Shown here: in pieces, positions 12,717 through 18,047 of the stretch
Position numbering within the stretch: the first letter of the stretch is position 1
How the letters are laid out: every line of letters begins with the position of its first letter
Made by a program: the position numbers and the translations under genes
The notes under the pieces: model-generated
Told to the model about the DNA's origin: nothing
Seen by the model: only the letters and a program-made list of their open reading frames with translations
Database searches by the model: none
DNA from: Armatimonadota bacterium
GTDB lineage: Bacteria > Armatimonadota > UBA5829 > DSUL01
Assembly (NCBI GenBank): GCA_039811685.1
Contig: JBDHZC010000006.1
Location: 64,001-128,000, forward strand
DNA: 64,000 bases
Reading direction: 5' to 3'

Positions 12717-15176
12717 ATGATTCGACTCTACCCTCTGATACTGGCCCTTGCAGGGGTATTGTGGTCTGCGCCCGCTCACGCGCTTCTTGTGTGTCTGGAC
12801 GCCGGCGCCCCGATCAACGAAAGCACTGGCCAGATTCAACTCAACGCGGCAGCGCTGAAGGCTACCGGCACGCAGTACGTTCGCGTAAACTTTATTCTAG
12901 GACCGTGGAGCAATCCCAATGACGCCACCAAACGCGGCCCGCAGAATATGAGCTGGAAGCAAACTTACGACCAGATCATCCACAGCCTGACTTCTCAGGG
13001 GATTGAGGTGTACGCTCTGATAGGTGCGCAGGCTGTCCACAGCTCGGCAGGCGGCAACTACAACAGCGATCAATGGGTCAATGACTACGTAGCAAACTTC
13101 ACCACCATCGTTGGCCAATTCAAAGATCGCGTGCGGGTTTACGAGTCTTTCAATGAACCCAACGACTGGGCCGGCGGCACAACCGCCCAGGTGCAGCCAT
13201 TCTGGTTTGCAAAGATGCTGCAAAACATCTACCTTTCGGTGAAGATCAATAACGGGCACCAGAGTGACCAGAGCTGGCAGGTAACGCTGGTGAGTGGGCC
13301 TGGCTTCAGCCACGACATGGACACCGTCGCCACTTACATGCAGCAGACCTACCAGGCGGGTATCAACCAGCTTTCGTGGACGTCAGTCAAGAACAGCTAC
13401 GGAACGTATCCGTTGGACGGCATCGGCTATCACATCTATGTCGCTCAGGGATCAACAGACACAACCACAGTCCGCAACGCTGTCAACAAGAACCTCAACG
13501 CAATCTGGAGTACAGTCAAGAGCTTTGAGGGGTCCAACACGCCTAAGAAGCTCTGGGTATCGGAGTGGAGCTGGAACACGGCATCGGTTTCAGAGAGTGG
13601 GCAGGCCAGCAATCTGACGACTGTGTTCAATCTGTTCAAAAGCGACGCACGCGTCGCGCTGGCGAGCTGGTTTCAGATTACGGACTTTGGGGCCTCCGAC
13701 AAGTGGGGGCTCTTTCGGGCGGGCGGCCTCACTGAGGCTAACAAGAAGCCGTCCTGGCAGGCCTTCCACGATTTTGCGGGGGCGCAGAACACTCCCGGCT
13801 CCATTACAGGCACAGTGCGTGACACACTGGGCAATTACCTGCAGGGTGTACAAGTAACCGCTTCGCCGGGCGCTTTCTCTACTACGACAGCGGCAGACGG
13901 AAGTTATACTTTATCTAATATACCTGTGGGAACTTATACTGTAGCTGCACAGAAGTTTGGCTACCGCCCTGGCAGTCAAGCGGTGAATGTGACATCGGGC
14001 ACAGCGGCAACGACCTCTTTTGTCCTGGGGTTACCAGCTACAGTCACATCTCCGGCCGGCGCAAAGCAGAGAACGGATGGGAGCTTCGTCAGACTGGACA
14101 ACGCAGTCGTGACCGCAAACTTTGCCGGAGACCGCATCTATATCGAGGCGGCCGATCGGTCCAGCGGCATCGGAGTAACCGGCGCGCAGGCGGCAGTGGG
14201 AGACCGCGTGAACGTGACGGGTACGATGGTAAGTGCCGACGGAGAGCGTGTGTTCACATCGGCCGGCGTTCAAGTGGTTGCCTCAGGCCAGCCTGTCCCT
14301 TTTCCGCTGTCTATGCGCAACTCCACCCTTGGGGGTGAATCATTTGCGGCTCAGGGAGGTGTTGTGGATAATGCGACCACCAATCCTGCCACTCCGGGCA
14401 TTGGGCGCAACAATGTGGGACTTCTGGTTACAACATGGGGAAACGTCACGTTTGTTGACGGTCCGGGTGCGTGGTTTTACATTGACGACGGCTCAGGGCT
14501 GAAAGACGGGTCTGGCCATGTCGGTGTACGGGTCGCGGCTTCCGGGCTCACTTTGCCCGCCGAAGGGAACCTGGTGCGCATCACAGGTATCAGCGGAGTG
14601 ACGCGGATTGGCTCCAACAATGCCAGAATTGTGAGGGCGCGGCAGCAGAGCGATATTGTAAGGCTCTACCCTCAAACGCTGGAGCCAATCGTCGGCAACG
14701 CCAGTTTTGAGGATGGAGCGCTTGCGCCCTGGAGCGCCTGCGGGTCAACGGATAACATTATTACGGGGACGTGGTTTGGTGGAATCACGGCGCACTCTGG
14801 CAATGCCTTCGCCGGCACGGCCACGAACGGAGGAGTGCGGTCCGGTGGCTACTACCAGACGGTGGCTGTGGAGCCGGGCACGTCCTGTGTGGCCAAAGTC
14901 TGGAGCGCGGTATTTCGAGCTGCCAATTCCACCACATCCACGCTGTCGCGTATCGGGATTGACCCGAGTGGCGGAACGAATCCCGCTTCAGCGAACATCG
15001 CCTGGTCCGCCTGGGACATGCAGAGCGCAGACTACACCTTCGTCTGGCGGCAACTCCAAACACCTGCGGTTACCTCGATTTCTTCTACTGTGACTATCTT
15101 TCTGGACTTTCAGCAAAGCGAAAGCGCGGGCTGGCATGTCAACTGCTTCGACGACGCAACGCTTGAGGTCCACTGA
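12717..15176 (+). CDS. Secreted clan GH-A-like glycoside hydrolase + carboxypeptidase-regulatory-like domain + shared domain + CBM-like domain
   Basis: Signal peptide; FNEPN acid/base, GYHIY, LWVSEW nucleophile; GNASFEDG...FDD jelly-roll tail. Confidence 0.8.
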   Translation: MIRLYPLILALAGVLWSAPAHALLVCLDAGAPINESTGQIQLNAAALKATGTQYVRVNFILGPWSNPNDATKRGPQNMSWKQTYDQIIHSLTSQGIEVYALIGAQAVHSSAGGNYNSDQWVNDYVANFTTIVGQFKDRVRVYESFNEPNDWAGGTTAQVQPFWFAKMLQNIYLSVKINNGHQSDQSWQVTLVSGPGFSHDMDTVATYMQQTYQAGINQLSWTSVKNSYGTYPLDGIGYHIYVAQGSTDTTTVRNAVNKNLNAIWSTVKSFEGSNTPKKLWVSEWSWNTASVSESGQASNLTTVFNLFKSDARVALASWFQITDFGASDKWGLFRAGGLTEANKKPSWQAFHDFAGAQNTPGSITGTVRDTLGNYLQGVQVTASPGAFSTTTAADGSYTLSNIPVGTYTVAAQKFGYRPGSQAVNVTSGTAATTSFVLGLPATVTSPAGAKQRTDGSFVRLDNAVVTANFAGDRIYIEAADRSSGIGVTGAQAAVGDRVNVTGTMVSADGERVFTSAGVQVVASGQPVPFPLSMRNSTLGGESFAAQGGVVDNATTNPATPGIGRNNVGLLVTTWGNVTFVDGPGAWFYIDDGSGLKDGSGHVGVRVAASGLTLPAEGNLVRITGISGVTRIGSNNARIVRARQQSDIVRLYPQTLEPIVGNASFEDGALAPWSACGSTDNIITGTWFGGITAHSGNAFAGTATNGGVRSGGYYQTVAVEPGTSCVAKVWSAVFRAANSTTSTLSRIGIDPSGGTNPASANIAWSAWDMQSADYTFVWRQLQTPAVTSISSTVTIFLDFQQSESAGWHVNCFDDATLEVH

Positions 15177-15314: not shown

Positions 15315-16079
15315 ATGAAAGCTTCTTTTAGCCTTCTGGTCCTGGCTGCGACTGCTGTGTGCGCTAACGCAGCGCCAGTCGTAACCACCACCCAGGGTAA
15401 TGACGGCGATCTGGCAAAAAGCCCCAGCGCGATTGATCTGATTGAAGGCAAGATTGCGACAGAGCTGCCCGGAGACAAGGGATGGCATCCAGCCAATAGC
15501 GACCCACTGGATAAGTTGCCAGCGTTCACTGACGGTCAGGGAATGCGCGCAACCGGTCTGACCGGTTTGCTGAACGACTTTCCAGGCCCGGGCACACCGA
15601 CCAAACTTATTCAGTACGATCTGAACTCTCCCACAGACATCTGGGAGATTGACGTGTTCTCTGGCAACAACGGCAGAGACGGCCGCGTGTTTCACACTTA
15701 TACGGTGGCCTTCTCAACAGACGGCGCCAATTACAGCAATCCGATCTACGTGCAGTCGCATCCCTCTGGCACTCTCAACAACGCGAACAACAATCAGTGG
15801 GCGAGAGTGTTGACGCAGCTCACGGATAGCGCCGGCCCGCTGGCGACTGGTGTCACCAACCTGCGCTTCAGCTTCTACGCAGTGGACAACACTCAGGGAC
15901 AGATGCGGGATCCGTTTGACGGTGTTAACCCGTTTACAGGTATTGACGACGGACTGGGCGCACCGATCTCATCTCCATTGATTCTCGAGATTGATGTGGT
16001 TCCGGAGCCGGCTTCCGTAGCCGCGATGGCCCTTGGGCTGACCGGATTTGCCGCGACCTTCCGCCGACGGCGCGCGTAA
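15315..16079 (+). CDS. PEP-CTERM protein
   Basis: AAGGGAG RBS, signal peptide, C-terminal VVPEPASVAAMALGLTGFAATFRRRRA. Confidence 0.93.
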   Translation: MKASFSLLVLAATAVCANAAPVVTTTQGNDGDLAKSPSAIDLIEGKIATELPGDKGWHPANSDPLDKLPAFTDGQGMRATGLTGLLNDFPGPGTPTKLIQYDLNSPTDIWEIDVFSGNNGRDGRVFHTYTVAFSTDGANYSNPIYVQSHPSGTLNNANNNQWARVLTQLTDSAGPLATGVTNLRFSFYAVDNTQGQMRDPFDGVNPFTGIDDGLGAPISSPLILEIDVVPEPASVAAMALGLTGFAATFRRRRA

Positions 16080-16850
16080 ATCCAGCGTTCAAGTCATGGG
16101 AAGCGCAGTGCCCACTCTGCGCTTCCCCTGCCGAAAGGAACAATCGATGAAAGGCTATTTTCTGCCGCTTGCTGCCGCTGTGCTGGCAGTATCTCTGAGT
16201 GCCCCCGGGATCACTGCACCCGTTGTCGTGACGACGCAGGGTGAGCTGGGCGATCTGGCAGCCGCCTACAGCACCACTGATCTGATCGAGGGAATGATCG
16301 CAACCGAGCTGCCTGGCGACAAAGGTTGGCATCCTGCCAACGCCGACCCCTTGGACAAGCTGCCGGCTTTCACTGACGGACAGGGCATGCGGCCAAGCGG
16401 CCTTACGGGCCTTCTGAACGATTTCCCAGGCGCGGGCACACCGACAAAGCTGATTCAATATCAGTTTGACAGCCCAAAAGACATTGACGAGATTCGTGTT
16501 TTCAGCGGGAACAAGAATAATACTGACGGACGTGTTTTTCACACTTACACTGCAGAGTTCTCACCCAACGGGATAGACTTCACGCCGCCGATCTATGTCC
16601 AGTCGCATCCCTCTGGCACTATTAACAATGACGCCGGAATATTCAACCACTGGCACAACGCGTTGACGCAGTTGACGGACGATTCCGGAAAAGTTGCTTA
16701 TGGCGTGCGCTATTTGCGACTCAAATTCTATTCCGTTGACAACACCGGTGGTCAGATGCGCGATCCGTTTGACGGCGAGAACCCGTTTACCGGTACGGAT
16801 GATGGATTGAGCGCAGGCTTTGTCTCTCCGTTGATTCTGGAGATCGACGT
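15375..16850 (+). repeat. Tandem duplication of a ~210-codon domain (about 15375-16000 and 16218-16850)
   Basis: Long identical peptide runs with mostly third-position DNA differences. Confidence 0.9.
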
Positions 16851-17493
16851 GTTCGGCGCCAACAGTGTTGCGCAGCCAGTTGCCACTATTGGCGAAGCGC
16901 GCGCAAAGCCGCTGGGGATGCTGGTTTCACTGAGTGACAAGGTTGTCACCAAGAGCGCTACAACCGAGTTCTTTATGGAAGAGGCGAACCGCAGCGCCGG
17001 AATCAGAGTAGTTTCTGCAGAGAACCCACCGGCAAACCAGAAGGTGTCGATCACGGGACAGATTGTAACCTCGTCCACCAACGGCGAGAAGTATCTGGAA
17101 GCCACGGGACAGCCTGCCACTGTTGGGGCGGCTGCGACAGTTGGCCCACTCGATATGCGAAACGGCGTCATCGGAGGTCAATCCGCAACTGGTAGCGCAG
17201 GGCTGGCGACAGATGGTCTTCTGGTCACGACATGGGGCAAAGTCACCGGCATTGATATTGGCAACAGCGTCGTGTACATTGACGATGGCAGCAATGCAGC
17301 CAACGATACGCCGGTCGGAACTTTAGGCGAGCAGGTCGCGGGGCTTAAGGTCGGTCCTGGTGATGTGTTCAGCCTCCTGCCGGGTCAGTATGTCGGTGTG
17401 ACGGGGATTTCCCGTCTGGACGCCGGCGGCCTCGGCATTATCCGACGCGTAGAGCCGCTGGACTTTGGCTCTTCTATAGTGAGTCTCGACTGA
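16147..17493 (+). CDS. Secreted paralog of the upstream PEP-CTERM protein ending in the shared C-terminal domain
   Basis: AAGGA RBS; N-terminal domain nearly identical to upstream gene (IATELPGDKGWHPAN.DPLDKLPAFTDGQGMR). Confidence 0.9.
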   Translation: MKGYFLPLAAAVLAVSLSAPGITAPVVVTTQGELGDLAAAYSTTDLIEGMIATELPGDKGWHPANADPLDKLPAFTDGQGMRPSGLTGLLNDFPGAGTPTKLIQYQFDSPKDIDEIRVFSGNKNNTDGRVFHTYTAEFSPNGIDFTPPIYVQSHPSGTINNDAGIFNHWHNALTQLTDDSGKVAYGVRYLRLKFYSVDNTGGQMRDPFDGENPFTGTDDGLSAGFVSPLILEIDVFGANSVAQPVATIGEARAKPLGMLVSLSDKVVTKSATTEFFMEEANRSAGIRVVSAENPPANQKVSITGQIVTSSTNGEKYLEATGQPATVGAAATVGPLDMRNGVIGGQSATGSAGLATDGLLVTTWGKVTGIDIGNSVVYIDDGSNAANDTPVGTLGEQVAGLKVGPGDVFSLLPGQYVGVTGISRLDAGGLGIIRRVEPLDFGSSIVSLD

Positions 17494-17519: not shown

Positions 17520-17550
17520 GAGCCGGAGTAAACCTCCGGCTCTTTTTTTT
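17520..17550 (+). terminator. Intrinsic terminator
   Basis: GAGCCGGAG-TAAAC-CTCCGGCTC-T8. Confidence 0.85.
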
Positions 17551-17627
17551 GTACCGATGTTAAGGACTTCTTCAGAACGCCCGTCATACTCAGCAGAAGG
17601 CCTTCGAGACAACAGCAAAACAGGATA

Positions 17628-18047
17628 ATGAGGAGTATGAAAAATAGAACACTGGCTCTCTTAGCCACAGCCTTTGTGCTGATAACCTCCGTGGGAGTCT
17701 GGGCAGCGGACACTCACCCGAAAACTCAGAACGGGCGACTCGATCCGCAGGCAAGACACCGCGCCATAGGCTGTCTGCAGAAAGCCGCAGACGCCGCCGG
17801 CGTAACTCCGGAGCAGAAGGCTCAGATTAAACAGATCAACGACAAGTTCCGGGCGGACGTGAAGGCCTTGCGCCAATCTGACCTGCCTCAGGACCAGAAA
17901 CGCGCAAAGTTGCGCGAGTTGAGGATCGCGCACCGCGAGGAGATCAAGAAGGTTTTGACTACACAGCAACTGACGGCGATCAAGAAGTACATGAAAGAGA
18001 ACTGTCCGCGAACTGGCGACGCTGCCCGACAAGGCAAAAAGGCATAG
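17628..18047 (+). CDS. Spy/CpxP-like periplasmic helical protein
   Basis: Signal peptide; VTPEQKAQI and VLTTQQ (LTxxQ) motifs. Confidence 0.7.
   Translation: MRSMKNRTLALLATAFVLITSVGVWAADTHPKTQNGRLDPQARHRAIGCLQKAADAAGVTPEQKAQIKQINDKFRADVKALRQSDLPQDQKRAKLRELRIAHREEIKKVLTTQQLTAIKKYMKENCPRTGDAARQGKKA

Follow-up and report, generated by a model that had tools for sequence, protein, structure and literature searches.

We describe two adjacent genes, here called A and B, in a 64,000-nucleotide stretch of DNA from an Armatimonadota bacterium (assembly GCA_039811685.1, contig JBDHZC010000006.1, positions 64,001 to 128,000 of the forward strand; hereafter the window). Both encode an exported, lectin-like cargo domain, and the two proteins carry different tails: A ends with a PEP-CTERM sorting signal, the signal handled by exosortases, and B ends with a module of about 200 amino acids (aa) composed of two oligonucleotide/oligosaccharide-binding (OB) folds. 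Sequence comparison gives good support to an exchange of tails at a fixed junction and to a localisation-type role for the module, because such swaps recur, four kinds of tail occur at one junction and the module is terminal on unrelated enzymes. The module probably serves as a tag that holds proteins at the cell surface or in the matrix. The best explanation of the whole, to which we give somewhat better than an even chance, is that the module retains the exported lectin B and about 80 other exported proteins non-covalently and that A is sorted by an exosortase. At issue is how bacteria of a little-studied phylum keep many exported hydrolases near the cell.

Genes A and B

Gene A (15315..16079, 254 aa) and gene B (16147..17493, 448 aa) both lie on the forward (+) strand, and the open reading frames (ORFs) confirm that these are two neighbouring genes with a common cargo, as an earlier note on this DNA had proposed. 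Ribosome-binding sites precede the start codons of both. The frame of gene B is open from a TTG at 16048; we took as its start the ATG at 16147, which has an AAAGGA ribosome-binding site. In A, a signal peptide (residues 1-19; MKASFSLLVLAATAVCANA, read from the sequence) is followed by the cargo (residues 20-228, nt 15372-15998) and the PEP-CTERM signal (residues 229-254, nt 15999-16076). In B, the signal peptide (residues 1-24) is followed by the cargo (residues 25-235, nt 16219-16851) and the tandem OB-fold module (residues 236-448, 213 aa, nt 16852-17490).

BLASTP aligned the two proteins with 162 of 235 residues identical (69%, E 5e-108), and the alignment stops at SPLILEIDV in both, exactly where the similarity had been said to end. 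Beyond this point A continues as VPEPASVAAMALGLTGFAATFRRRRA, in which VPEP, the hydrophobic span ASVAAMALGLTGFAATF and a terminal RRRRA can be read in that order. Residues 229-253 of the 254 pass the cut-offs of both PF07589 (21.7 vs 20.7 bits) and TIGR02595 (22.7 vs 16 bits). For B we found no Pfam or NCBIfam family and no PEP-CTERM match at the C-terminus; its 213-aa tail resembles the middle of the upstream gene at 12717-15176 (30% identity, E 4e-17). The description of one copy as ending in VPEP, a transmembrane segment and RRRR, and of the other as continuing into a domain of about 200 aa, is therefore borne out, since A passes the PEP-CTERM cut-offs and B carries the module.

The mature domains had been called nearly identical, which overstates their likeness: in the mature domain 72.5% of the amino acids agree, and at the nucleotide level the identity is 67%. 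Among 228 aligned codons, 80 were identical, 82 differed only synonymously and 66 changed the residue. Nei-Gojobori counts gave 114 synonymous and 109 non-synonymous differences, so that the claim of mostly synonymous differences is only roughly true. The non-synonymous divergence (dN) was 0.25 and the synonymous divergence (dS) 1.9, which is saturated. The resulting dN/dS of ~0.13 agrees with the proposal that both copies are under selection, in this case purifying. Recent duplication or gene conversion was rejected because of the dS of ~1.9 and the nucleotide identity of 67%; judged by their divergence, A and B are old tandem paralogs.

A tblastn search of the 3.42-Mb genome with the cargo found genes A and B only. 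An AlphaFold2 model of the cargo (212 aa, 121 aligned sequences) had a predicted local distance difference test score (pLDDT) of 95.3, and Foldseek against the PDB returned the CBM32/discoidin entries 7blg, 5zu6 and 4a42 together with neuropilin b1 (probability 0.98-1.0, template modelling score on the target 0.4-0.56). The model has the form of a galactose-binding-domain-like beta-sandwich. The Pfam model PF00754 (F5_F8_type_C) scored A at 19.2 bits, under its cut-off of 28.2, and did not match B; a precomputed match to it exists in 2 of 118 cargo relatives. The family has 91 columns with a conservation of 90% or more, of which A retains 89 and B retains 84. On the strength of the model we read the cargo as a lectin-like beta-sandwich with putative sugar binding.

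The tandem OB-fold module and its carriers

The 3.4-Mb genome (G000) was searched with a profile in three rounds; among its 9196 ORFs with a length of 90 aa or more, 84 contain the module, each of them once. It is terminal in 73 of these, with at most 26 residues after it. The usual ending of the module-terminal proteins is ...R.R..sDI.v..P, and the last residue is proline in 28 of the 73, as against 6.5% of 1681 background ORFs. Within the genome the closest match to the module of B is 37-40% identical, which identifies no recent donor there; the closest among relatives is 49% identical.

The AlphaFold2 model of the module, built from 80 aligned copies, had a pLDDT of 93.1. Its halves (model residues 1-90 and 94-208) each adopt an OB fold (Z 10-11.5, root-mean-square deviation (rmsd) ~2 A), and the Foldseek list includes the tandem-OB proteins POT1, RPA70 and HIN domains, 4jbm among them. 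Against PDB sequences the module profile matched the N-terminal OB domain of 9sf8, an endonuclease/exonuclease/phosphatase (EEP) protein (E 5e-5), as well as RPA14 and YgiW. Scanning of 80 modules against Pfam and NCBIfam revealed no entry of the module's own. The matches obtained were to PF01336 (generic OB; 7), RMI2 (4) and BOF (3) in Pfam, and to YgiW-type models (3) and ExeM/NucH (1) in NCBIfam. The BOF/YgiW family PF04076 was matched by 3 of the 80 modules at E <= 0.01, and B's own module gave no match to it. Membership of DUF5689 was also considered, on an Atlas feature lead of 0.88 that falls under the 0.9 level, and was rejected, as none of the 80 modules matched the Pfam model (PF18942) at E <= 0.01. 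The net charge of the modules has a median of -3 and is positive in 16 of 84.

A Pfam scan of the carriers covered 53 of the 84 module proteins and 20 of the 39 PEP-CTERM proteins of the genome. Thirty-nine of the 53 scanned module proteins had a Pfam family (E <= 1e-4) and 14 had none; in none of the 53 does a Pfam family span the module itself. The carriers include four subtilases, two cell-wall amidases, a metallophosphoesterase and an EEP-fold (nuclease-type) protein. Among them are also glycoside hydrolases (GHL10, GH5-type, GH39, alpha-amylase, glucoamylase and arabinofuranosidase), beta-helix proteins, beta-propellers and a protein of the formylglycine-generating enzyme (FGE)-sulfatase type. 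A crude rule finds a signal-peptide-like N-terminus in 68 of the 84 module ORFs, as against 30% of background ORFs. The median size of module ORFs is 816 aa and that of PEP-CTERM ORFs 247 aa. No ORF of the genome bears both tails, a PEP-CTERM-like end being found in 0 of the 84 module ORFs.

Tail exchange elsewhere in the genome

The genome encodes three exosortases (PF09721, 189-196 bits), all above the TIGR02602 cut-off, and for none of the three does a named Xrt subtype reach its cut-off. Thirty-nine PEP-CTERM matches were obtained, all above cut-off. When the tails were masked, 12 of these 39 proteins shared cargo with 15 of the 84 module proteins. The earlier note had staked its reading on the existence of other tail-swapped pairs, and six junction-precise PEP-CTERM/module pairs were found in which homology stops within 25 residues of the module start; four of the six are adjacent genes. 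The swap recurs in at least five cargo families of this genome besides that of A and B. The members of a second tandem pair, on contig C5, are 59% identical over 263 aa and diverge at ...YIGL(N/D)(R/K)P, after which one copy continues with VVPEP and the other with the module. In a swapped pair that is not adjacent, the alignment (35% identity over 182 aa) ends at the PEP motif of one protein and the module start of the other.

PEP-CTERM and module genes also tend to be neighbours. For 14 of the 39 PEP-CTERM genes, the nearest module gene is no more than 500 bp away, compared with 4.0 +/- 1.9 (maximum 12) in 2000 random placements. In a closed genome of another genus (G001; 3 short fragment rows were dropped from its 69 module matches for this count), 12 of 40 PEP-CTERM genes lie within 2.5 kb of a module gene against 4.0 expected, a number reached in 1 of 5000 simulations. 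Where the scanned PEP-CTERM proteins have a second family, it is CBM- or lectin-like (X25 starch-binding, CBM_4_9, Laminin_G_3). At C4:293713-300103 of G000, a PEP-CTERM pullulanase X25 starch-binding protein is encoded between two module genes, one of them for an alpha-amylase. The group has the look of a small cluster for capturing starch, in which one binder is anchored and the enzymes are docked.

The wider cargo family and a second organism

With the cargo of B as query, 453 of 1441 candidate database proteins passed E <= 0.001. The top 120 of the 453 show 59-87% identity, and some are labelled by their sources as Verrucomicrobiae or Phycisphaerae. The cargo family is thus unusually conserved across proteins so labelled and the window's phylum, and yet the syntenic cargo gene of a neighbouring genus reaches only 51% identity and has a long branch (0.97), a contrast that suggests lateral transfer or uneven rates.

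We classified the tails in 121 rows, which comprise 118 database proteins, A and B themselves and the syntenic G001 gene, by motif rules and by reading of the printed tails. Four kinds occur at the same junction: a tail of ~76 aa (88 rows), PEP-CTERM (26), dockerin-like repeats (5) and the OB module (2), the last in B and P0004 only. The ~76-aa tail (for example in P0016, P0037 and P0094) has the pattern ...L.LsW......vQ....L..p.W.dL.PQP.i...G.tN........FFRLR, and the two examples scanned matched neither Pfam nor NCBIfam. Possibly it is a further end module that has yet to be named; sources label some of its bearers Verrucomicrobiae. The dockerin-like tails are Asp-rich and score under the cut-offs: P0062 reached 21.4 vs 22.9 bits for PF00404 and 19.2 vs 29 bits for NF041540, and the tails of P0035 and P0088 matched only an acidic double-disulfide repeat model, likewise under cut-off.

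In a quick maximum-likelihood tree of the cargo (IQ-TREE, midpoint root only), B groups with P0004 (support 100) as sister to A with P0005 (support 98), the joint node having a support of 90. PEP-CTERM rows occupy deep branches and the A/B clade is nested among them. Tails change 6 times on this tree, as against 30.7 times with shuffled labels. Relatives in genus g2 have a single PEP-CTERM cargo copy downstream of the upstream-gene orthologue; in G001 and G005 this orthologue has the module at its end and is followed by one PEP-CTERM cargo gene. No B-type gene is present among the matches listed for 40 relatives. From these comparisons we infer that PEP-CTERM is the ancestral tail and that, after tandem duplication, it gave way a single time to the OB module.

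A second organism has the same arrangement. On the metagenome contig L116, the end of an A-type PEP-CTERM gene is separated by a spacer of 85 bp from a B-type gene, and the reductase gene found downstream of B in the window follows here too. B and its counterpart there are 77% identical, with a dN/dS of 0.05 in the cargo and 0.13 in the module at a dS of ~1.7; the last 103 codons of A gave a dN/dS of 0.12 against the same contig. These ratios indicate purifying selection on the two copies as well as on the module, and the A-B arrangement is evidently old.

Distribution of the module and of exosortase

Database searches with the module returned 9141 cluster representatives at E <= 0.001; the number fell to 5291 when E <= 1e-10 was required, and to 2688 with E <= 1e-30. 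Of 151 genomes sampled from the phylum, 43 had a module match. Twelve of these (G000 included) belong to its own class, and each has at least 21 matches; three further own-class genomes in the sample have none, and the other 31 matching genomes have 1-3 mostly weak matches each. Across the class, the module was present at E <= 1e-10 in 48 of 53 genomes, mostly in 20 to more than 60 copies, with three genomes having 1-4. Exosortase (PF09721) was found in the same 48 genomes, so that no genome was discordant. The five genomes without module and exosortase (G011, G021, G014, G020 and G185) have completeness of 84-99%, and a PEP-CTERM match was found in 0 of the 5.

Neighbouring features of the locus

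The upstream gene (12717..15176, + strand) encodes 819 aa with a signal peptide and a glycoside-hydrolase-like head, followed by a CarboxypepD_reg domain (residues 362-437), an internal tandem OB module (residues ~439-644, nt ~14031-14648) and a C-terminal region of ~175 aa beyond it. The upstream protein matched the Kustd1514 S-layer model (E 2e-12). We rejected this S-layer lead and attribute the match to the CarboxypepD_reg domain, because 0 of 80 isolated modules match that model.

A GC-rich hairpin (16098..16127, + strand; 11-bp stem, 8-nt loop, -26.8 kcal/mol, z -3.7) lies in the spacer between A and B and is not followed by a T-run. At the equivalent position on L116 (328-380) there is a different, stronger hairpin (-55.8 kcal/mol, z -6.8), also without a T-run. 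Such a hairpin may determine how strongly A is expressed relative to B, or may lend stability to the upstream mRNA. Downstream of B, a terminator-like hairpin (17520..17552, + strand) has a 9-bp stem with 7 GC pairs and then a run of T. Between this terminator and the aldo/keto reductase gene, the + strand encodes a small exported protein of 139 aa with repeated LTxxQ-like motifs (17628-18047), which we take to resemble the Spy/CpxP type; its gene has no counterpart at that place on L116.

Discussion

The tail swaps offer a first comparative handle on the role of the module, which is found at the position of an end module and travels with exosortase. In our favoured explanation, which we regard as the most economical, A would keep the ancestral PEP-CTERM signal, be processed by one of the three exosortases and presumably stay on the cell envelope. 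In B, the OB module, which more exported proteins of this class have at their end than any other domain, would have replaced PEP-CTERM once, exactly at the end of the cargo. The module itself would be a folded, non-cleaved binding domain that docks on a shared component of the surface or matrix. This component, for which a polysaccharide or a glycosylated layer is the likeliest candidate, would depend on the exosortase/PEP-CTERM system. The cell would thereby make one lectin in two forms, A covalently sorted and B non-covalently docked.

The earlier note had gone further, to one cargo sent to two envelope destinations, which is not shown by these results. In every one of the 53 genomes of the class, module and exosortase are present or absent together, and PEP-CTERM and module genes are adjacent more often than in random placements; this coupling and adjacency suggest a single surface system in which attachment is both covalent and non-covalent, possibly to the same layer, rather than two independent destinations. 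The accompanying idea of an alternative localisation module fares better. Swaps at a fixed junction and the terminal position in 73 of 84 proteins speak for it, although the support is comparative and falls short of proof.

Several observations weigh against the favoured explanation. The C-terminal position of the module is a strong bias and not a rule: in 11 of the 84 ORFs the module is internal or N-terminal, with 44-473 residues after it, and database proteins with 2-6 copies exist. Every comparison has a saturated dS, which makes the dN/dS values approximate. Genes for exported proteins may cluster in general, a tendency for which the counts are uncontrolled, and this could account for PEP-CTERM genes lying next to module genes; in G001 the excess at 1 kb is not significant (5 of 40 genes where 2.0 were expected; 258 of 5000 simulations gave at least as many). 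The five genomes that lack both module and exosortase represent three genera (g8, g15 and g11) in two families, so the coupling rests on 2-3 independent losses only. These genomes also have 0-1 S8 protease (subtilase) each, so that module and exosortase could have disappeared together when a lifestyle built on exported enzymes was lost more generally. Finally, exosortase clearly works without the module, since exosortases are widespread beyond the class, where the genomes of the phylum sample have no more than 1-3 weak module matches each.

It is possible, but we think doubtful, that the module instead targets substrates or polymers in the manner of a carbohydrate-binding module (CBM), or binds extracellular DNA. 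It would then bring enzymes to their substrates or to DNA in the matrix instead of to the cell envelope, and B, with its lectin and its OB module, would be a two-headed cross-linker and no re-addressed copy of A. OB folds bind both oligosaccharides and nucleic acids, and the structural and profile matches listed above (the OB domain of 9sf8, YgiW and RPA14; POT1, RPA70 and the HIN entry 4jbm) are in keeping with this, as is the occurrence of internal and multi-copy modules. For DNA in particular, one preprint proposes DNA binding for DdbD, a surface DUF5689 protein resembling p202 HIN (4JBM) (10.1101/2025.03.18.642099). The DUF5689 model, however, matched no module, and general DNA binding is hard to reconcile with modules that are mostly acidic; nor would coupling with exosortase be expected of a DNA binder. 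Substrate targeting would have to account for one module family on proteases, amidases, phosphoesterases and glycoside hydrolases, which is unusual. Neither version explains readily why the module stands in for PEP-CTERM, and dockerin-like tails occur, at the same junction.

We consider it very unlikely that the module is a cleaved C-terminal secretion or sorting signal for a dedicated outer-membrane machine like the type IX secretion system (T9SS). The terminal position on many unrelated exported proteins, the frequent terminal proline and the lineage-specific distribution would all suit such a signal. The module is, however, well folded, its ~200 aa forming two complete OB barrels; purifying selection acts along its whole length; Por_Secre_tail is not among the Pfam families listed for the 80 modules; and no candidate machine was identified in a search confined to exosortase. 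Moreover, the internal, N-terminal and multi-copy modules fit a binding domain better than a terminal sorting signal. Among the database proteins P0122, P0143, P0144 and P0207, some carry 3-6 modules in a row, which fits avidity in a binding domain.

The least credence of all goes to ordinary duplication and domain shuffling, with a tail irrelevant to localisation and A and B equivalent. Exported multidomain proteins do exchange domains freely, and the B form is known from two organisms only (2 of 121 rows), with none among the matches listed for the 40 relatives. Shuffling of this neutral kind would nevertheless leave unexplained the purifying selection on the copies and the module, the retention of the tandem in a second organism at saturated dS, and the recurrence of the swap in at least five other cargo families of the genome.

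A more ambitious extension of non-covalent retention, which we put forward tentatively and think unlikely as a whole, is that the module is the docking half of an undescribed exosortase-dependent surface-display system. PEP-CTERM lectins and a polymer would form a cell-bound layer on which about 80 OB-tailed enzymes per genome dock non-covalently, and tandem pairs such as A and B would be the anchored and the dockable version of one lectin. Retention by the module, in its narrower form, yields the testable hypothesis that the module binds an exosortase-dependent component of the surface or matrix. A and B, together with the pair on contig C5, are natural matched pairs and provide ready-made experimental controls.

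Comparison with known systems

We found nothing in the literature linking the module or PEP-CTERM to Armatimonadota, and the passages searched in a preprint on myxosortase (10.1101/2023.06.07.544157) contain no mention of tail swapping. The link between the module and PEP-CTERM, the four-tail cargo family and the coupling with exosortase are new in this analysis.

With respect to the PEP-CTERM/exosortase system, gene A is a regular member, having a signal peptide, VPEP, a hydrophobic helix and RRRR in a genome with three exosortases. The module occupies the PEP-CTERM position in B and in five other cargo families and is co-distributed with exosortase. It differs in being a soluble fold of ~200 aa without a transmembrane helix or PEP motif, and so cannot serve exosortase as a substrate in the way known so far. 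Exopolysaccharide loci are found together with exosortase systems. The fold of the cargo is like that of CBM32 and F5/8 type C domains, but at 212 aa the cargo is longer than their usual ~140 aa.

The C-terminal domain of T9SS substrates is a beta-sandwich of ~70-100 aa that is cleaved off. Like the module, it is a lineage-specific end domain on dozens of unrelated exported proteins per genome, whereas the module is twice that size, consists of two OB folds and is sometimes internal or repeated. Among extracytoplasmic OB folds, the BOF/YgiW-YdeI family (PF04076, TIGR00156) is close in structure, 1nnx fitting barrel 1 of the module with Z 10.3 and an rmsd of 2.1 over 78 residues. BOF proteins, however, are single free-standing barrels of ~110 aa, in contrast to the fused two-barrel unit that ends large enzymes here. 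The DUF5689 surface protein DdbD has been likened to the tandem-OB HIN fold (p202, 4JBM), and 4jbm is also in the Foldseek list of the module.

Dockerins, including the GC-type dockerin (PF00404, NF041540), are folded modules at the C-terminus of exported enzymes and lectins, where they provide non-covalent docking, and dockerin-like repeats stand at the same cargo junction in 5 of the 121 family members. Their fold differs, being made of Ca-binding helices as opposed to the OB barrels of the module, and we know of no cohesin-like partner for the latter. A surface-display system of the kind outlined above would nonetheless resemble cohesin-dockerin or S-layer homology (SLH)-polymer anchoring, but would be built from OB folds.

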